Virus record (IMG/VR): IMGVR_UViG_3300021256_000078
Coordinates: 1 to 64,000 of that record
Reading direction: 5' to 3' (one strand)
Length of the DNA: 64,000 nucleotides
Source: a virus
Taxonomy: Duplodnaviria > Caudoviricetes
The position numbers and the translations under genes are program-made. Below the pieces are notes generated by a model, which saw only the letters and a list, made by a program, of their open reading frames with translations, searched no databases and was not told the origin of the DNA. Each line of letters opens with the position of its first letter. The first letter of the stretch is position 1. Shown here in pieces: positions 518 through 48,072 of this stretch.

Positions 518-3343
518 TTATCTGTCCCCCATTCCTTTGAAGTTATTGAATTCTTTCGCTAAAGTAGTAACTGAAATACCAAGTTCTTCTGCAACTTCGG
601 CCGGAGAGTGACCAGAATTTAAGAGTGCTCTGGCTCTGGCTTTTGTAGAGTCTTTCATGCCAGTGTTAGCTCTCGGCATGGCCCTCTTCTTGATTGCATC
701 AGTATCTGCATATCTCAGAATTGTCTTAAGTTTCGTATCAGAGATGGCTCCTGCTTGAATGGCATCCCATTCTCTATCTGTCACATCAATTCTGTATCTT
801 CGGATTGTGTTATTCTTTTCATCCAATCCAAAGACCAGTTCTCTGGCATGGTTCATTTCTTTCTGTGACAGTTTACGAAGCTTGTCTGCATTCTCTTTCA
901 GCTTCAAGTCGGGATTGGCTTCCTTCTTTGCTGCAATGTTGCTAGCTGCAATGAGGGTTGCCTGCCTTTCTTTCGGAGCTTCAAGCATGGCTCTCGAAAC
1001 CTTTTCATTCAAGGATCTGACTTCATCCTTATATGCAAGCTCAGCATCTCGGTTATACTTCAGATTCCCGGTCTCTCTTGCTTCCTTTCTAGCAAGGTTA
1101 CCAAGGGCCTTCATTCTGTTTGCATGCTCAGCATAGATGTTCTCAATCTCATAACCTGAAGACAACTTGTACGCATCCGTCTCTTCTTCCATTCTGGTAG
1201 AGGTTCGGGTATTAGGTACAAGTTTCCCGGCTTTGTTCTTGTGCATCTTCCCAGTATTGCGATAGATGACTTCGCCTCTGTTATACCGTTCCTTTTCTTC
1301 GTCGGTCATATCATTGTATGAATAGACTTCCTTGCGTTCTGGAAGGTTATGCACTTCACCTTTAGCCTTTGAGATCAGAGTTGAGGATCCGCCTTTCGGT
1401 CCGTTCTGATAATCCTCTCTGAGCTGAGCAATGTTGTTGTCCCGTTCGGAACGCTGCCAGTCGAGGTTGTGTTTCTCGGCATCGATGACAACCATGGAAT
1501 GCTTAACGGCTCTCTCAATTTCATCGAGACTTGCATTCTTGATTGTCATATCTGTAATCAGGTTTGAGGCCATGCCCATCTGAACCTGTTTGTTAAATCC
1601 ATCGCCCTTCTTACCGTCACGGCTCTTGCCTGTACAAGTGGTGTCGTCGGGATCTCTGGCGTATTCATCAGTGCTGAATCCTTTCAGACCGGGCAAGGGA
1701 TCGCTGGTCTTCAGTTTTTGTCCCTTTGTCGGAATGACAAGCACTGTATCGCCGTCAAAATCTGCTCCTGAAAGCTGAGCTGCCACATTCACATTAATAC
1801 CAATAGCATGAGCTGCTTTCAGTCCGATAGAATCGATGGCATCTTTGTTCTTGTTATTAACCTTCAGCCTTGGAATTTCAAATGTTCCTGCATGAGGGTG
1901 TCTTACAAGAATGACTTCTTCGCCATCGTTGTACATAGGTGCAAAGACTTCATTGTCTTTCAGACTTTTGACTGGCAGAATGGCGAATGATCCCTGTCTT
2001 GGAAGAGCAGCCGCTTTCAGAAAGACTGCTGCTGAATCACAGGAATCTGCAAAGTCTTCACAGAGCTGTCTTTTAAGCGTCGGATTGGTCAAACTCTTCA
2101 GTTCCTCGAATTCATCTGCGAATTCCTTATACCGAATGTCCAACTGTCTCTTGGCCAAAGACGGCATCTGCTTAGAAAGAAACTGTGATGACAGATTTTT
2201 CTTCCATCCTTCCCAGTCTTCATCGTCGTTGACGATATTCATTGGGGATCTGACTTTATTTCCATCAGCATCCTCATAATCCCATCCTCTGAATGCCGAT
2301 CCGAACGGATTTGTCGGATCTTTCTTCATGATTTTCAGAACTGTGTGGTCGCTGTCTGGCCCAAGCGGAGGTGTTCCCTTCTTGTAGTGCGAGTTGTAGA
2401 TGATATCGATACCGGGTGGCATATCGTCAGGATTCCCATAAATGGCCATTCCCTTCATATAATGCGTCCCGTCGACCGCAACTCGAACCTGAGCGTAGTT
2501 TCGTCCTCCAAGGGATACGTCCTGAACACCTGGTCGAACCTCAATCACACCATCTTTTGCAGCTCCTCCGTCTTCAGCGTATTTCACAAGAATTCTTGAA
2601 GAGTCGATGCTCGTGATAGGCTGTGAGAAAACAGCTTCTTTGCCGAAATCTTTGAAATACACACCTTTTGGAGAAGTAATCTCTCCAAGATGAGCTCTCA
2701 TTTCAGCATAGGTTGCATCTTCCGGACATAGGATTTTCATGTTGGTATGCTGCTTCGGATTGGTTACCTGATTCAGCTTGTAGGAATAGACATTATAGCC
2801 TTCGTCCTCCAGAAGCAACGTCGCTGCATGAAGCTGATCGGCACTGATATTTAGCTGTTTTTCCACGCCTTCACCAACGTCCAGGAACCGTTTGTGTTCG
2901 AGTTCCTGTTTCAGAACGTCAGCAATGCCCTTGACGGTGTCTTCACGCCTCTTTTTGTTCGGGTTCAGCAGATTTCGCACAGTTCCTTCAGAAACGCCGA
3001 GTTTTTCAGCAATTGCTGTATTGCTGTAGCCCTTGGCGCTCCACTTTTCGGCCTTAATCTGATTTTCCGCGTCAATCTGATTTTTGTAGATTTTCCGCAT
3101 GGCACGGTAATCCTGGGTTTTCATGCCCATAGCGGCTGCAACTTCCTTCTGTGGAAGTCCCTGCGCAACCAGATCATCGGCTCTCTGAAGCCAGTTTCTG
3201 TTTCTTTGGGGATTTTTACCTGATCCCCATGGATAACGTCCCGAATGCCTCGGTGTTCCGTAATGAGCGATATAACCTTCAGAAGGTGCATCATCATTTT
3301 CGCCAATTACCGGGTTTTCCTGTTCAACATACTGGTCATCCAT
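518..3343 (-). CDS. single-subunit double-psi-barrel RNA polymerase (YonO/cellular-RdRP-like) with multiple HTH motifs
   Basis: SGADFDGD metal-binding loop (DFDGD at 1748-1762), VRHP motif, QVR...MKG barrel motif; HTH-like segments such as GYSNTAIAEKLGVSEGTVRNLL and C-terminal GHSPAEVAEELGISVTTL; start moved to ATG 3343 with SD GAGG. Confidence 0.8.
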   Translation of the reverse strand: MDDQYVEQENPVIGENDDAPSEGYIAHYGTPRHSGRYPWGSGKNPQRNRNWLQRADDLVAQGLPQKEVAAAMGMKTQDYRAMRKIYKNQIDAENQIKAEKWSAKGYSNTAIAEKLGVSEGTVRNLLNPNKKRREDTVKGIADVLKQELEHKRFLDVGEGVEKQLNISADQLHAATLLLEDEGYNVYSYKLNQVTNPKQHTNMKILCPEDATYAEMRAHLGEITSPKGVYFKDFGKEAVFSQPITSIDSSRILVKYAEDGGAAKDGVIEVRPGVQDVSLGGRNYAQVRVAVDGTHYMKGMAIYGNPDDMPPGIDIIYNSHYKKGTPPLGPDSDHTVLKIMKKDPTNPFGSAFRGWDYEDADGNKVRSPMNIVNDDEDWEGWKKNLSSQFLSKQMPSLAKRQLDIRYKEFADEFEELKSLTNPTLKRQLCEDFADSCDSAAVFLKAAALPRQGSFAILPVKSLKDNEVFAPMYNDGEEVILVRHPHAGTFEIPRLKVNNKNKDAIDSIGLKAAHAIGINVNVAAQLSGADFDGDTVLVIPTKGQKLKTSDPLPGLKGFSTDEYARDPDDTTCTGKSRDGKKGDGFNKQVQMGMASNLITDMTIKNASLDEIERAVKHSMVVIDAEKHNLDWQRSERDNNIAQLREDYQNGPKGGSSTLISKAKGEVHNLPERKEVYSYNDMTDEEKERYNRGEVIYRNTGKMHKNKAGKLVPNTRTSTRMEEETDAYKLSSGYEIENIYAEHANRMKALGNLARKEARETGNLKYNRDAELAYKDEVRSLNEKVSRAMLEAPKERQATLIAASNIAAKKEANPDLKLKENADKLRKLSQKEMNHARELVFGLDEKNNTIRRYRIDVTDREWDAIQAGAISDTKLKTILRYADTDAIKKRAMPRANTGMKDSTKARARALLNSGHSPAEVAEELGISVTTLAKEFNNFKGMGDR

Positions 3344-3917
3344 TGTTCTCAACCTCTCTCAACGATTCTGAAGCCCAGGCTTCTTTTTCCTTTATCAAGC
3401 AGATGACCTCTTCCATACGATCCTTATCCGGACTGTACTCCTGAATGTCGTCATTCTGATAAATGCGAAGATTCACCTTCGTGTTGAGAGGATTGACGCC
3501 CATAACCCGTTCATATTCCATCAGAAACAGAGCAGCATAAACTTCAAGCTGCTCCATATGAACCGGGCCTGTTCCTGTTTTCAAATCATGAATCCTGAGG
3601 ATTCCTCTCCCGAAGTCAATCGTGTCTGCATGTCCAAAACAGTTATCCGTGTATTTCAATCCGACTTCAGGCGTCATGCCATAACCGATTGCATCATTCA
3701 CATAGTCAACGAAAGTCTGACCTTTGCCTTTCAGCTTATAGGTTCCTTCACTGATCAGACTCGCTGCGAGATTATGGAGCCAGGTTCCTCTGGCAGCAGC
3801 GTTCTGCGAAATGATATACTTTCGGATCTGGTCCTGTGTATAATTCAGCCAGTATGGCTTACTCGGACTCAGAATGGCATGCTTATCTTTCAACTCCAAA
3901 TGCTTGTTGAAGATCAT
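3336..3917 (-). CDS. PD-(D/E)XK exonuclease, Cas4/DUF2800-like
   Basis: HAILSPS, GTWLH, E...GHAD...DLKTG, QL..YA motifs; start at ATG 3917 with AGGAGG. Confidence 0.7.
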   Translation of the reverse strand: MIFNKHLELKDKHAILSPSKPYWLNYTQDQIRKYIISQNAAARGTWLHNLAASLISEGTYKLKGKGQTFVDYVNDAIGYGMTPEVGLKYTDNCFGHADTIDFGRGILRIHDLKTGTGPVHMEQLEVYAALFLMEYERVMGVNPLNTKVNLRIYQNDDIQEYSPDKDRMEEVICLIKEKEAWASESLREVENNG

Positions 3918-4179
3918 CGAGTACCTCCTGTTTGTTTTCAGGATAAACAAATCGACTGAAGGACATTTGATTTGCCCTGTCGACATAGTAATCCTGATTC
4001 GGTTGATGACTCGCGACTTTCGACTGCTTGCATTCGAGAAGCGCCCAGTGGTCTTCCCATAGAACGGTCAGATCCGGCAGACCTTGCCGTGACTCGTTCT
4101 TATAAATCAGAGCTCCCGGAAGCAAGCTTTCAAGTTCGCTGATAAGTTCTTTCTGAAATTTGCTTTCGCGCAACTCCAT
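3883..4179 (-). CDS. VRR-NUC family nuclease / resolvase
   Basis: ESKFQ..., GLPD, LECK, Q motifs in 98 aa. Confidence 0.7.
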   Translation of the reverse strand: MELRESKFQKELISELESLLPGALIYKNESRQGLPDLTVLWEDHWALLECKQSKVASHQPNQDYYVDRANQMSFSRFVYPENKQEVLDDLQQAFGVER

Positions 4180-4269
4180 TCACCTCGAAACGCCATAGAG
4201 GCCGTCGGATTTACGACGAGCTCTATTTTTCATTTTCATTGTTTGGTTTCAGTAAATTACCTGAAACGC

Positions 4270-4309
4270 AAAGAAAATAGACCGAGCGTTATCTCGGTCC
4301 TCCCTCTCT
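4270..4309 (-). ncRNA. promoter-driven mini hairpin RNA (second copy 4394-4433)
   Basis: promoter followed directly by GACCGAG-ATAACG-CTCGGTC and a U-rich tail, no ORF. Confidence 0.5.
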
Positions 4310-4586
4310 ACTATAGACGGTGTAAATTTTACGAATTGCCTATAGCCGAAAATATTCGTAAAGTCTTGGAATCCGTCAAATCTGGCGAATCCCAAAGAAA
4401 ATATACCGAGCGTTATCTCGGTCCTCCCTCTCTACTATAGACGGTGTAAATTTTACGAATTTCAGAAAGTGTAAAAATGCACAAAGCTTAGAGAAGTTGC
4501 CAGAATTGAACTGGTTTCTCTTATTTCTAAGTGCGTTACCGTCACGCTCTCCCTCTCTACTATAGACGGTGTAAATTTTACGAATT
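4300..4586 (-). promoter_or_regulatory. three identical tandem phage promoters (38-bp repeat, 124-125 bp period)
   Basis: ctccctctctactatagacggtgtaaattttacgaatt at 4300, 4424 and 4549. Confidence 0.8.
4490..4558 (-). ncRNA. tRNA-like small RNA lacking an anticodon
   Basis: AGAGAGG/CTTCTCT closing stem; D arm GCGT-GACGGTA-ACGC; CTTA-GAAA-TAAG; T arm CCAG-TTCAATT-CTGG. Confidence 0.6.
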
Positions 4587-5833
4587 CAGGTATTTCGAGA
4601 TTTTATGAAGCTGCTTTCGTTAAAGTTTTTCTTTCTCTTCAGTGCGCGTGTAATGGCAATGTCAATTGGGGCAAATGTTCGAAAGCTGTAGTAATACAGA
4701 TCCTTGAACGGCGTGTTCCGTCTGTCGATCCTTCCCATTGCCTGTTCTGTCATCTTGTAGGAATAGCTCTGGGAATAGAACAGGATGGCATTAGTCTCAA
4801 TGCAGTTCCAGCCTTCGGCTCCCGCTGCATACTGGACAAGGTAAACCCAGCGTTCGGCATCCGGAATCTCCTCATGGCGGTGTCCGTTCCATTCCTTCAA
4901 AACGGTTCCTTCTGGCCAAGCTGCCGCTCTCATGATTTCCAGTTCATAATCGAAATTGTAGAAGATGATCAGCTTCGGATGTTTGTCCGCAATTTTCACA
5001 ACTTCCGCAATCCGGCTTGGATCCGCATTCACAACTTTCCGAAGCAGGTAGCAAAGTTCCGAAACGTTTTCAATTGGCTTGTTCTCAAAGACATTCCAGC
5101 GGTCCTTCATAATCTGCCGATACAGTTCCTTGTTGAAATCGGCGAGCAGTTCCTGCTTATGTCGTTCGGTGTGCTTGTCGTAATCGATGTTCACCAGGAT
5201 AGCATCCCGCATTCTCTGCAGAATGAAGTCGTCAACATACCGGTCGACCTGAGGGTACTTAGAGAATCGGTTGTAGATCACATGCCGGTTTTCAAAGTCT
5301 CTTTTGTTCTTAAAGAATCCATTGGCTATGAAAATGGACAGATAGTCCATCCAGCAGTCCCCTGGTGTTGCGGTTAGAAATATCCATTGATTCGACCTAG
5401 CGATCTTGATGAATGCCTTAGCCCATGCGCCGTACCCGACGACCCTCTGTTCATCAAACAGAAAGAATGCGTCTTTAATGTCAATGTATTTCTGGATGTT
5501 GTTCCAGGAATCAACAACGACCTTAACTTTATCTTTGTAGTAACTGACGCTCTGGTCGTCGGATAGCAGGAACCAGTTGAGTTCATCTTCCCATTCCCGC
5601 TTATCCCGTTTCTTGGCCGTTGTGATAATGTACAGATTCTTCGGATGCGGCATTGGAACAAAGTCCTTGTCAAGACCGTACGTTCGGCCATCAATCAGAC
5701 CGCCGCCGACTTTGCAGTGATAATAGGCAAGGCCGGTCCGACTCTTGCCGGAACCGACCCCACCGCAAAGTATATTTCCGTTCCGAAGCTTACACAGCGC
5801 TTTCAGTTGCCCCTCATCCAGTTTCGGAACCAT
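4586..5833 (-). CDS. SF2 (SNF2-like) helicase
   Basis: GGVGSGKS, DEQR, TATPG, EQAMGRIDR motifs. Confidence 0.85.
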   Translation of the reverse strand: MVPKLDEGQLKALCKLRNGNILCGGVGSGKSRTGLAYYHCKVGGGLIDGRTYGLDKDFVPMPHPKNLYIITTAKKRDKREWEDELNWFLLSDDQSVSYYKDKVKVVVDSWNNIQKYIDIKDAFFLFDEQRVVGYGAWAKAFIKIARSNQWIFLTATPGDCWMDYLSIFIANGFFKNKRDFENRHVIYNRFSKYPQVDRYVDDFILQRMRDAILVNIDYDKHTERHKQELLADFNKELYRQIMKDRWNVFENKPIENVSELCYLLRKVVNADPSRIAEVVKIADKHPKLIIFYNFDYELEIMRAAAWPEGTVLKEWNGHRHEEIPDAERWVYLVQYAAGAEGWNCIETNAILFYSQSYSYKMTEQAMGRIDRRNTPFKDLYYYSFRTFAPIDIAITRALKRKKNFNESSFIKSRNT

Positions 5834-5843
5834 TTGTCAGAAC

Positions 5844-6464
5844 TTAGTTAAACGGAACCTCGTCACCGTTCGATCCGACCGGTGCCGTCATGGATGCCTG
5901 CGGAGCTGCGGCAGGCTGCACACCGAAGTTTCTCAAATATCCATACTGATCGTTGACGTAGTTGGATGCAACGTTGGCGATGATGCCGGTGGCGAAGACC
6001 TGATGATACTTGATCCCGTTCTGGTGTTCCTTCTCCTTGGCGCTGATCTCAAGAGTCAGGCACATATTGGAAATATCAAGATCATTGAGCACCTTCACAT
6101 GATCCTTGTCCAAGAAGGTCGGAACGCCGTTGGTCACGCTGATGACCTCGGGAGCAGGGCGAAGACCCTGATCACTCAGATAATAGGACAGTGTCACTGC
6201 CACATAGGGCTCCGGAACGTCGTTCGGACCCTGAACGTTGGTCATTCTGATCTCACAGCCATACTGGGCAAGCTCATCGGCAATCTCCGGTGTAAGGTAG
6301 AGCAGGAAGTTCCGGTTGCCGTCGCCGTTCACGATCTTTCCGGTCACCGGATGACGCTTCTCCACACCGCCGAAATTGCGGGAACGAATCTGTCTGTCGC
6401 CGATTCCATCGATAACTACGCTGCTGAGTCTGTCGTTATAGTACTTTCTTTCCATGATCTGCAT
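5844..6464 (-). CDS. putative single-stranded DNA-binding protein
   Basis: lies between Pol and helicase; flexible tail ending DEVPFN. Confidence 0.6.
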   Translation of the reverse strand: MQIMERKYYNDRLSSVVIDGIGDRQIRSRNFGGVEKRHPVTGKIVNGDGNRNFLLYLTPEIADELAQYGCEIRMTNVQGPNDVPEPYVAVTLSYYLSDQGLRPAPEVISVTNGVPTFLDKDHVKVLNDLDISNMCLTLEISAKEKEHQNGIKYHQVFATGIIANVASNYVNDQYGYLRNFGVQPAAAPQASMTAPVGSNGDEVPFN

Positions 6465-6500
6465 GATGTTGTTCTCCTTTTGTTTTGTAATAATTTAAAA

Positions 6501-14814: not shown

Positions 14815-14839
14815 CTATAGGAAATGTAATTTTTACGAA
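14815..14839 (-). promoter_or_regulatory. phage promoter
   Basis: TTCGTAAAAATTACATTTCCTATAGT. Confidence 0.75.
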
Positions 14840-42485: not shown

Positions 42486-42695
42486 AAGAGTTGTAAGCTT
42501 CGAACTTACGTCTCCGGTTTCATTCACCATCAGACACCACATTTCTGTGGCCCGGCGTGCTACCATTGCACCATTACGGCGTTAAGGCATTTCAGCCTCC
42601 GGGGCATGACCCCCGTGGAGTTTCCGAAACATTAAATCTGAATGTCGGTTGTCCTTCTCGGATGTCGATTCATCCATTTCGTTCGCCTCCTCTCT
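42486..42695 (-). ncRNA. structured RNA with tRNA-like 3' domain and embedded 31-codon ORF
   Basis: D arm GTGC-AATGGTA-GCAC, CCGG/CCGG stem with GCCACA-GAAA-TGTGGT, T arm GTAAG-TTCGAAG-CTTAC; promoter at 42697. Confidence 0.6.
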
Positions 42696-47935: not shown

Positions 47936-48072
47936 ACCTCCTTTCTACCATAAAAGCTGTAAAAAATGCGAAAATGTCAATAAAAAATGCTTGCAGGAGC
48001 GAATGGAAATTCTTCAGATGAACCAATCATCATTCAGAACTCACAGAATCGCTCCTACAAGCACTGTTTTCC

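Follow-up and report, generated by a model that had tools for sequence, protein, structure and literature searches.

The phage element described here is a tRNA-shaped RNA sequence in which a short, sealed hairpin takes the place of the anticodon arm, and it almost certainly belongs to a conserved, unannotated family of tRNA-derived small RNAs in the 1706/FP_oengus siphophage group. The element lies on the minus strand at 4490-4558 of the window (the whole 64,000-nt stretch of phage DNA that was analyzed), and it is not a chance fold. The family has a design that is both compact and natural, in which a tRNA core whose anticodon arm is sealed is joined to a helix that would serve as both the start and the end of the transcript. 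In the account favored here, family members act in trans as non-decoding tRNA mimics; this account as a whole is tentative, with a probability of about 42% (the mechanism itself is placed at roughly 40-45%).

The minus strand of 4490-4558 carries exactly the letters that were given for it in the initial annotation, and the four-way cloverleaf drawn there is both the unconstrained MFE fold and the centroid fold (Table 1). The MFE cloverleaf has an energy of -17.3 kcal/mol (z -1.8), and one more U:A pair extends the closing stem to 8 bp (-19.4 kcal/mol, z -2.1). One of the pairs in AGAGAGG/CUUCUCU, the stem of 7 bp, is G:U. By itself, the fold energy of the window copy is modestly unusual, and the strong case against chance is the comparative evidence. 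Both elbow elements are present in the window copy (the D-loop GG in GACGGUA and the T-loop motif UUCRANU in UUCAAUU), and the three-dimensional contact between them is a prediction. The mini-arm is 12 nt long (4 bp plus a GAAA tetraloop), compared to 17 nt for a canonical anticodon arm. Linkers of 4 nt and 2-3 nt bridge the junction, D-loop position 14 is G rather than A, and an A.C pair stands at the base of the T stem. As had been reported, no CCA is encoded: AAGC comes after the closing stem. The U-rich sequence begins only 4 nt past the stem, leaving no U-tract adjacent to it, and a terminator scan called no terminator-like site for this copy. The window copy is a divergent member, the least tRNA-like of the family.

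Table 1. Features of the element, its surroundings, and the second family member, in window coordinates.
Feature	Position	Strand	Basis or remark
RdRP/YonO-like putative RNA polymerase, 944 aa, HTH domains	518..3352	(-)	phrog_4291
Endonuclease, 98 aa	3883..4179	(-)	phrog_93; first gene downstream of the three cassettes
Cassette 3: identical promoter, same hairpin as cassette 2, U-tract	4269..4335	(-)	
Cassette 2: identical promoter, 5' hairpin ACCGAG-AUAACG-CUCGGU, U-tract, no ORF	4395..4459	(-)	
U-rich spacer between element and promoter copy 2	4462..4489	(-)	strongly variable between strains
tRNA-shaped RNA, capped arm replacing the anticodon arm	4490..4558	(-)	sequence, MFE fold, family model
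Closing stem, 3' strand CUUCUCU	4490..4496	(-)	sequence, fold; AAGC next, no CCA
T arm (A)CCAG-UUCAAUU-CUGG(C)	4499..4515	(-)	sequence, fold, family model
Capped mini-arm CUUA-GAAA-UAAG, GNRA tetraloop, in anticodon-arm position	4520..4531	(-)	sequence, fold
D arm GCGU-GACGGUA-ACGC, with G18 and G19	4533..4547	(-)	sequence, fold, family model
Closing ("acceptor") stem, 5' strand AGAGAGG	4552..4558	(-)	pairs with 4490-4496; doubles as the promoter's conserved, purine-rich stretch predicted to be transcribed first
Phage-specific promoter copy 1, TTCGTAAAATTTACACCGTCTATAGT	4559..4584	(-)	abuts the 5' end of the element
DNA helicase, upstream gene	4586..5833	(-)	phrog_62
Second family member, core	42493..42571	(-)	family models: 40.5 bits; R3: 39.2 bits, E 8e-10

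The prediction that tRNA finders would overlook the element was accurate. ARAGORN reports neither a tRNA nor a tmRNA there and calls none in the window or in the whole 95-kb genome; its relaxed settings (-ps70/80) return hundreds of noise calls, which were discarded. The Rfam tRNA model (RF00005) matches 4492-4555(-) at 16.5 bits, under the gathering threshold of 29 bits, and no other Rfam family, including the Y RNAs, matches the element. Relatives exceed this threshold, at 35-45 bits, which speaks for a tRNA origin of the family. The window copy has neither the canonical anticodon arm (5 bp and a 7-nt loop with U33 and purine 37) nor the canonical acceptor layout (7 bp on the T stem, a 2-nt D linker, and a discriminator plus CCA).

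Family membership is established by comparison. R3, a leave-one-out covariance model built from 22 look-alikes in other phage contigs and containing no window sequence, matches the window at 4499-4547 with 39.4 bits (E 7e-10); no unrelated match in the window exceeds 7.6 bits. Over the 64-kb window, R3 finds only this element and the one at 42493-42571. In an alignment of 20 distinct relatives, which was fitted to the model structure and leans towards it, 97% of cells are paired (28-51% in slid control alignments); compensatory changes occur in 12 of 13 core pairs, a number reached in 0 of 500 shuffles. The initial annotation had staked its reading on the conservation of the D-loop GG and the T loop in homologs, and both are kept: UGGUA and GGUUCGAAUCC are found in at least 90% of the 22 relatives, and they stay fixed while the stems covary.

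The family design begins with the phage-specific promoter and a purine-rich 5' strand from about +1, which leads into a core made of a canonical D arm and a canonical T arm. The consensus includes U8/A9-like linkers, A14, G26, an AGNU-type (AGGU) variable region, and the T loop UUCRANU. The capped arm is 10-16 nt long in 19 of the 23 distinct family arms and ends in tetraloops (often GNRA, also UUCG) or in 6-nt loops; these cap loops have no conserved sequence, and only one member (L134) has a potentially canonical anticodon loop. The 3' strand is pyrimidine and is mostly followed by a U-tract. A closing helix is present in every member, ranges in length from 6 to about 25 bp, and lacks a discriminator or CCA; because of this variable length and these missing nucleotides, the acceptor end does not faithfully reproduce that of a tRNA. 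The 5' and 3' flanks of a given member pair better with each other than with swapped flanks (permutation p<0.0002). Conservation across the family is confined to the elbow and core.

Related loci were fetched with the phrog_62 helicase, and family-model matches are found in 28 of 48 related records, some of these matches being true tRNAs. Members occur in many gut and rumen phages and in two cultured phages: the Faecalibacterium phage FP_oengus (50.3 bits) and Lactococcus phage 1706 (39.2 bits, with an MFE cloverleaf at z -4.0). R3 has no matches in the actinophage relatives Lewando, Qui, and Bilo. A blastn search of GenBank phages with the locus gives no match. The exact D-arm/T-arm pattern of the window copy has 0 matches in IMG/VR, so no near-identical copy of the window element was found at another locus. 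Among related strains, whose variants were read from runs X1-X4, there is 1 change in the 69 nt of the element versus 9 changes in the 28 nt of the adjacent spacer (Fisher p 4e-5); a G-to-A change at 4534 in one run breaks one D-stem pair. A search for sequencing runs that carry 3300-6500 of the window listed no RNA sample. Retention of the design in related phages, the two cultured ones among them, marks 4490-4558 as a selected tRNA look-alike, and the low variation between strains is evidence of selection in the wild.

The promoter is a 26-nt motif that ends in TATAGT and is identical at three places in this locus; looser copies lie ahead of coding-strand genes across the whole genome, and the motif likewise stands in front of the element in relatives and in Lactococcus phage 1706. 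Tandem Repeats Finder made no call for the 125-bp promoter repeats. The proposal that the element has its own phage promoter agrees with the positions, as the closing stem begins at 4558, on the base right after the end of the motif (4559), and relatives, FP_oengus, and 1706 show this layout as well; the promoter role is supported on sequence grounds, and the start site given here is a presumed one. At window position 47972, a Shine-Dalgarno sequence starts 4 nt past the -10 box, and transcripts should thus start no more than about 3 nt after the -10 box, which would place AGAGAGG at the 5' end of the RNA. Terminator-like sites are called in cassette 2 (4422-4405) and in cassette 3 (4300-4279), and the nuclease/RNAP operon is next after cassette 3. 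The phrog_93 endonuclease gene is also next after the element in two relatives (L044 and L116).

The 944-aa RdRP/YonO-like polymerase encoded at 518-3352 (see Koert et al., bioRxiv 10.1101/842583) probably reads the phage promoter. A PDB sequence search with the protein returned nothing useful. CTATAGTAGAG resembles the SP6/T7 promoters, a likeness that suggested a T7-type RNA polymerase; the PF00940 profile has no match in the phage genome, and as the control genomes are equally blank this result is uninformative. The observation that no Ro60/Rsr gene is seen extends from the window to the entire phage genome, in which no TROVE gene is found; CCA-adding enzyme, RNA ligase, and RtcB are also absent, and control genomes gave matches for all four. 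The phage thus has none of these tRNA-handling enzymes, and its genes give no pointer to an RNA partner.

In the favored account, each member is a self-contained cassette, and firing of the phage promoter would turn the purine-rich first bases of the transcript (AGAGAG...) into the 5' strand of the closing helix. Inside this helix the tRNA core would fold, with GG in the canonical D arm, UUCRANU as the loop of the T arm, and a variable region of the AGNU type; since a short capped hairpin replaces the anticodon arm, no codon could be read. The pyrimidine 3' strand would then close the helix, and the U-tract that usually lies behind it should stop transcription. The RNA expected from this is about 70-130 nt long; with both ends base-paired it would be stable, and it would display a tRNA elbow. 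Such a mimic may act in trans by occupying a host or phage factor that reads the body of a tRNA rather than its anticodon. Because helix length varies and neither discriminator nor CCA is present, enzymes that gauge the acceptor/T helix are doubtful partners for an RNA that has not undergone processing; among them are RNase P and RNase Z, the CCA-adding enzyme, the aminoacyl-tRNA synthetases, and EF-Tu. It is also conceivable, if rather unlikely, that abundant, doubly end-protected tRNA-shaped RNAs made by the phage RdRP-like polymerase constitute a counter-defense or takeover device. In one possible variant, the RNAs would bind and neutralize some host factor able to read the body of a tRNA whatever its anticodon (e.g., an acceptor-modifying or tRNA-cutting toxin); in another, they would bind and regulate the phage polymerase, by analogy with the action of 6S RNA on bacterial polymerase. 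Downstream genes vary from member to member, and an operator that autoregulates one tRNA-binding enzyme was rejected as a candidate on this ground.

The main rival to a stand-alone mimic is a cis-acting 5' leader, a serious alternative that is nonetheless on the doubtful side. The +1 helix would shield the mRNA from 5' exonuclease, much as a 5'-terminal stem-loop shields mRNA in Firmicutes, and together with the U-tract would form a promoter-proximal terminator or attenuator that controls how much transcription reads through into the genes behind it; the tRNA core would only provide a sturdy scaffold that folds fast, or a docking site for a termination-tuning factor. Hairpins starting at about +1 do stand behind almost every promoter of this genome, cassettes 2 and 3 hold a simple hairpin and U-tract in the same place, and the eight closest relatives (helicase 70-79% identical) carry only simple hairpins at this very locus. 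The closing helix also varies freely in length, as a terminator stem would. Yet a simple hairpin would suffice for this purpose, and despite large divergence at least 90% of members retain the elbow nucleotides. About two thirds of members lead directly into a ribosome-binding site and a gene without its own promoter, an arrangement that fits a leader equally well; in about 8 of 24 members, however, another promoter comes directly past the U-tract (twice in the window, and in L118a, L126, L135, L138, and FP_oengus), making the downstream gene independent of read-through, and two members (L133 and L134) carry a separate canonical terminator hairpin after the element. The combination of a stem and a U run that marks a terminator is present in cassettes 2 and 3 and, if the closing helix is taken as the stem, in most relatives, but it is absent from the window element, which has no U-tract beside its stem. 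An improbable alternative is that the element is a processing signal like mitochondrial tRNA punctuation or "t-elements," at which cuts by host RNase P and/or RNase Z set mRNA ends and the freed tRNA-like piece, possibly CCA-tailed, is a by-product. Both enzymes accept non-tRNA substrates that are tRNA-like, six matches in relatives (one in L044, two in L118, two in L116, and one in L070) score 35-45 bits on the Rfam tRNA model, above 29, and L127-type members combine a UA linker of 2 nt with an inner acceptor of 7 bp and a trailer rich in U. An extended acceptor helix without a single-stranded 5' leader disfavors RNase P and RNase Z, however, and this is the arrangement created by the leader-trailer pairing, which lengthens the acceptor helix to 8-25 bp. 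In addition, the distance from the elbow to the end of the helix is not conserved, and the unpaired linkers of the window copy break acceptor/T stacking.

The initial annotation had interpreted the element as a decoy for tRNA-targeting defenses, and the features on which it drew (the tRNA shape, D-loop GG, T loop, capped arm, and promoter) all hold. Phage tRNAs are known to counter such defenses (bioRxiv 10.1101/2023.03.15.532788), and an element that is tRNA-shaped and apparently promoter-driven would suit the role. As a sink for anticodon nucleases or anticodon-modifying toxins, however, it is a weak candidate and has a still smaller chance of being correct, because the 7-nt anticodon loop that these enzymes recognize and cut is precisely what is missing; in its place stand unrelated tetraloops and 6-nt loops whose sequences are not conserved. 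The element might instead be a tRNA pseudogene in decay, or a fold arisen by chance in a spacer rich in purines and pyrimidines; in favor of this are the 16.5-bit Rfam score, the modest z of -1.8, and the lack of the element at this locus in the closest relatives. This very improbable reading is largely refuted by the E value of the leave-one-out model (7e-10), by a short arm that stays paired through compensatory changes in many lineages, by the low rate of strain variation in the element relative to the spacer (1 in 69 nt versus 9 in 28 nt), and by the second copy in the same genome. Least probable of all is a feature acting at the DNA level, either a replication origin with tandem promoters or an attachment site containing part of a tRNA gene. 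The primary origin of T7 is marked by tandem phage promoters, and the element is located amid three tandem repeats within the replication module; proviruses occur among the relatives, and a tyrosine integrase is encoded by FP_oengus. Against this, members sit at varied genome positions with varied downstream genes, their orientation always follows that of the promoter, their stems hold G:U pairs, and they possess both a D arm and a T arm, along with a 5' strand that matches, whereas attachment sites carry only the 3' part of a tRNA.

Full-text literature searches found no description of a capped-arm family, and the only "anticodon-less" match concerns a cleaved host tRNA. In its main text, a 2023 catalogue of 10,006 viral structured RNAs presents tRNA-like candidates only generically. 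The family exemplifies phage genes that are missed by standard tRNA finders and Rfam thresholds, and it is coupled to a private transcription system of the phage, in which promoters and terminators have themselves received little study. tRNA mimicry is a recurring route for RNAs into the translation and RNA-processing machinery, and if either the host-factor or the polymerase-regulation reading is true, these RNAs would establish a new class of RNA effectors encoded by phages. Phage 1706 is virulent on Lactococcus lactis according to the literature; the unannotated members in cultured 1706 and FP_oengus (which infects Faecalibacterium prausnitzii) make the function of the family accessible to genetics and RNA biochemistry.

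Comparison to known RNAs highlights both the likeness of the family to tRNA and its departures from it. With canonical tRNA (RF00005) it shares a four-way cloverleaf, the order acceptor, D, (anticodon), and T, the D-loop GG, and the T-loop UUCRANU, but its 10-16 nt capped arm has no 7-nt anticodon loop, and its helix of 6 to about 25 bp would be built from the first bases of the transcript without discriminator or CCA. YrlA-type Y RNAs are likewise non-decoding tRNA mimics with 5' and 3' ends paired in a long stem; in YrlA, the ends leave from the anticodon-stem side, the acceptor-like stem is closed, and the RNA works with Ro60. In contrast, the ends of the phage element leave from the acceptor side of the fold, which bears out the D-then-T arm order claimed for it; here it is the anticodon arm that is closed, and the phage has no TROVE/Ro60 gene. 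YrlA RNAs also occur in phages (Chen et al. 2014, PMC4201824). The tRNA-like domain of tmRNA is another tRNA mimic without an anticodon, although it differs in having an mRNA-like domain, an alanine-accepting CCA end, and a reduced D arm. The mascRNA of MALAT1 has a reduced anticodon arm. Both mascRNA and the mitochondrial "t-elements" (PMC1920247) are tRNA-like folds inside longer transcripts; they are eukaryotic or organellar, defined by RNase P/Z cleavage, and unrelated in sequence, whereas the helix of the phage element is extended from +1.

A structural parallel for the inserts seen in some members is the engineered "tRNA scaffold" used to express RNAs stably (PMC3401473), a nuclease-resistant RNA in which the anticodon arm is likewise swapped for a hairpin or insert. 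This scaffold is man-made and needs normal tRNA end-processing and CCA, in place of which the naturally occurring phage element has a closed helix of great length. In the second window member, the D arm (GUGC-AAUGGUA-GCAC) and the T arm (GUAAG-UUCGAAG-CUUAC) flank a CCGG...CCGG arm expanded by about 33 nt, with a GAAA-capped hairpin inside, and a U7 tract and then the next promoter lie behind it. With inserts at the anticodon-arm position, this member and one in a relative (L118b) look like a natural "tRNA scaffold."

The minus-strand cloverleaf that the initial annotation claimed at 4490-4558 is present with exactly the described sequence, and it is both the unconstrained MFE and the centroid fold of this element (−17.3 kcal/mol, z −1.8); a second folding, with an 8-bp closing stem, gave −19.4 kcal/mol (z −2.1). 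By fold energy alone the element would be only mildly unusual. Because AAGC follows the closing stem, no CCA end is encoded, as had been stated. The Rfam tRNA model matches 4492-4555 (−) at 16.5 bits, short of its 29-bit threshold, the element has no meaningful match to any other Rfam family, and ARAGORN calls no tRNA or tmRNA in either the window or the whole 95,237-bp virus record, in line with the prediction that tRNA finders would miss it.

Related loci were fetched via the helicase protein. In the eight closest relatives the element's site is occupied by one to three promoter units carrying simple hairpins. At the corresponding site of the distant relative L044, a clear tRNA-like element stands behind a promoter. 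The search was then extended with R1, a core model made from two sequences, with a pattern scan of IMG/VR, and with a family model (R2) run over 48 related virus records; together these gave more than 20 distinct members sharing one common plan (see table). Beyond the U-tract of the members lies a ribosome-binding site and gene, or else the next promoter. Six relatives exceed the Rfam tRNA threshold (35-45 bits), and the family is therefore tRNA-derived. The third model, R3, drew on 22 members from outside the window and was searched against the whole window; this covariance check, suggested at the outset, recovered the element at 4499-4547 (−) with 39.4 bits (E 7e-10). A second match, at 42493-42571 (−), scored 39.2 bits (E 8e-10), and the next-best only 7.6 bits. 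The second copy has canonical D and T arms and an anticodon-position arm expanded by about 33 nt. It is much larger than other members, its 5' strand lying about 150 nt from the tRNA core, and its 5' part (42590-42680, −) contains a short ORF starting ATGGATGAATCG behind GGAGG.

Parts of the element, of its family and of neighboring or related loci
Feature	Location	Strand	Sequence or content	Followed by or remark
Closing stem, 5' strand		−	AGAGAGG	linker GAGA
D arm		−	GCGU-GACGGUA-ACGC	A
Capped arm (anticodon-arm position)		−	CUUA-GAAA-UAAG	AGAA
T arm		−	(A)CCAG-UUCAAUU-CUGG(C)	AA
Closing stem, 3' strand		−	CUUCUCU	AAGC
Helicase gene	4586-5833	−		one border of the three-copy motif array
L044 element, D arm			GUCU-AAUGGUA-AGAC	
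L044 element, capped arm			UCGG-GUAA-CCGA	
L044 element, T arm			GCAGG-UUCAAUU-CCUGC	
Family plan, 5' part			terminator of preceding gene, phage promoter, purine-rich 5' strand	2-nt linker, often UA
Family plan, core			canonical D arm such as GCUCAGUGGUAGAGC, G26, short capped arm	AGGUN variable loop
Family plan, 3' part			T arm GGUUCGAAUCC, pyrimidine 3' strand	U-tract
Contigs with arm GUG-GACAA-CAC	L139:1501-1553 (record of L089); L100, L102, L105, L107, L111, L114, L117			eight contigs

An alignment of 20 distinct relatives is paired in 97% of its cells, and for 12 of the 13 core pairs both sides vary, values that none of 500 shuffles reached; sliding the partner column by 1-3 positions lowers pairing to 28-51%, and a further covariation test agreed. 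The alignment was fitted to the model and is hence biased towards the structure, but the contrast is so large and the pair types so diverse that the covariation signal is unlikely to be an artefact. At least 90% of members retain UGGUA in the D loop and GGUUCGAAUCC in the T loop, so the lack of conservation or covariation of the D-loop GG and T-loop that the initial annotation named as counter-evidence is not what the homologs display. A closing helix is found in every member, with a length of 6 to about 25 bp, and each 5' flank pairs with the 3' flank of its own member better than with 3' flanks from elsewhere in the family (permutation p<0.0002). The canonical anticodon arm has 17 nt, whereas the arm at this position measures 10-16 nt in 19 of the 23 distinct versions; its loop is of GNRA or UUCG-like type or has 6 nt, the different loops share no sequence, and only the arm of locus L134 could accommodate a canonical anticodon loop.

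Contigs spanning 4432-4578 came from four public sequencing runs (X1-X4) in three studies. Ten sites differ in the strain of X3 and X4. Nine of them are in the 28-nt spacer that follows the element (4462-4489) and the tenth (4498) is in one of the element's unpaired linkers; stems, loops and promoter are unchanged (Fisher's exact test, element versus spacer, p = 4e-5). In X2 one change (4534) disrupts a pair of the D stem. Constraint on the element is therefore stronger than on its flank, but not absolute. At 4550-4585 one X1 contig crosses the promoter repeat with a "goes back 36" joint, and every short contig breaks at the repeats; strains may differ in how many tandem promoter cassettes they have.

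A 26-nt motif ending in TATAGT occurs in three identical tandem copies about 125 bp apart, the element lying behind copy 1; behind copy 2 and behind copy 3 lies a simple hairpin with a U-tract and no ORF. The border of this array opposite the helicase gene is an endonuclease/exonuclease/polymerase operon, also on the minus strand. A looser form, TTCG-N-TTTACA-N5-TATRRT plus a purine run, stands upstream of genes across the whole coding strand, and the motif spacing does not match that of a sigma-70 promoter. At the sequence level, this genome-wide repetition ahead of genes supports a putative phage-specific promoter and agrees with the claim of one directly before the element. A candidate reader of the motif is the phage's own 944-aa RdRP/YonO-like polymerase homolog, which has HTH domains; this protein has been proposed as a signature RNA polymerase of a phage group with hosts in both Actinobacteria and Firmicutes (Koert et al., bioRxiv 10.1101/842583). 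At window position 47972, a Shine-Dalgarno sequence begins 4 nt past the -10 box, so transcripts would start within about 3 nt of the -10, which would place AGAGAGG at the extreme 5' end of the RNA. A hairpin beginning at the inferred 5' end follows nearly every promoter of the genome and seems to be a general principle of how this phage builds transcript 5' ends. Where the first base of the motif is at 14839, 17592, 26888, 40227, 41559, 42479 or 42980 (−), the purine run directly after the -10 is the hairpin 5' strand in almost all predicted transcripts, and several transcripts predicted from this set have a U-tract between the 5' hairpin and the ribosome-binding site. Between cassette 3 of the array and the endonuclease gene, a 19-codon ORF (MKMKNRARRK...; 4183-4239, −) ends within that gene's ribosome-binding region and could be a leader peptide or due to chance.

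The element is structured, conserved, coupled to a promoter and derived from tRNA, and it is incapable of decoding. Transcription would begin at about +1 and, in most members, probably terminate at the U-tract, giving a predicted RNA product, about 70-130 nt long, whose ends both lie in a helix. The reading tentatively preferred, with a probability of roughly 0.4-0.45, is a stand-alone tRNA mimic acting in trans via its elbow and body, because the nucleotides of the tertiary contacts are strictly conserved and a mere hairpin needs none, about one-third of cassettes are followed by another promoter or an extra terminator, and the downstream genes vary. The competing reading, somewhat less probable, is a cis-acting 5' protective structure or attenuator, which three features favour: 5'-terminal hairpins are general in this genome, equivalent sites are held by simple hairpin and U-tract cassettes, and most members lie directly before a gene without its own promoter. 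A mimic in trans and a structure in cis are not mutually exclusive.

It is less probable that RNase P or RNase Z processes the element, given that the closing helix is extended and variable in length. The initial interpretation holds for structure, promoter coupling and mimicry of the tRNA elbow; the decoy role is hypothetical, and its version aimed at anticodon nucleases is unlikely, since the anticodon loop is exactly the part that is missing. The genome search found no phage-encoded Ro60 (whose absence from the window had been noted), CCA-adding enzyme, RNA ligase or RtcB, and any partner would therefore be host-encoded or unrecognised.

Like the tRNA-like domain of tmRNA, YrlA Y RNAs, mascRNA and viral tRNA-like structures, the element is a tRNA mimic, and it is similar to the engineered "tRNA scaffold", where another hairpin takes the place of the anticodon arm. 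It belongs to none of the tRNA, tmRNA, YrlA, mascRNA or viral tRNA-like families: in contrast to canonical tRNA it lacks the anticodon loop and CCA end, with the window copy under the Rfam threshold; its topology is opposite to that of YrlA, as the arm order had indicated, with no Ro60 partner in the phage; and no other Rfam family matches. A full-text literature search found no published description of a promoter-coupled capped-arm family, and a 2023 catalogue of viral structured RNAs treats tRNA-like candidates in general terms only.

The capped-arm family is real, widespread within one phage group and invisible to standard annotation, and it can be tested in two cultured phages. In Faecalibacterium phage FP_oengus, R3 finds an unannotated member between gp05 and gp06 (NC_047916.1 2945-2997, 50.3 bits), followed by the next promoter; the FP_oengus paper and the supercluster preprint do not mention such an RNA. 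The unannotated member in Lactococcus phage 1706, between orf42 and orf43 (NC_010576.1 31105-31155, 39.2 bits), has an MFE fold (z −4.0) in which the tRNA core is enclosed by a helix of about 24 bp, this helix ending in U8. It is preceded by ATTTACAAGTACTATAGTAGAGAAG, nearly the same as the window's promoter, so this private promoter is conserved from a dairy phage to the window's gut/rumen phage. Three actinophage relatives gave no R3 match. The near-identity with phage 1706 (L159:1445-1475) concerns the motif TTTACA-N5-CTATAGTAGAG..., which in the window lies at 4559-4584, 47972, 42702 and other sites (−).

Other tRNA-like stretches occur in further contigs. A 58-kb relative (L118:853-1032) has two tandem tRNA-like cassettes with one promoter each, the first arm GCAA-capped and the second 21 nt long, paralleling the window's tandem cassettes. 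The capped-arm tRNA-like stretch AGAGAGUG...CACUCUCU, with arm GUG-GACAA-CAC, is unchanged in eight IMG/VR contigs, whose different upstream region holds no recognisable copy of the window's promoter. An unrelated 77-kb contig (L128:1501-1548, −; record of L097, IMGVR_UViG_3300021255_004736) has about 29 tRNA-like matches clustered at 51-59 kb and, separately, a tRNA-shaped gene whose arm is truncated (CCUC-AUU-GAGG) and whose GCCA end is encoded, which is another kind of anticodon-less tRNA, its acceptor being normal.
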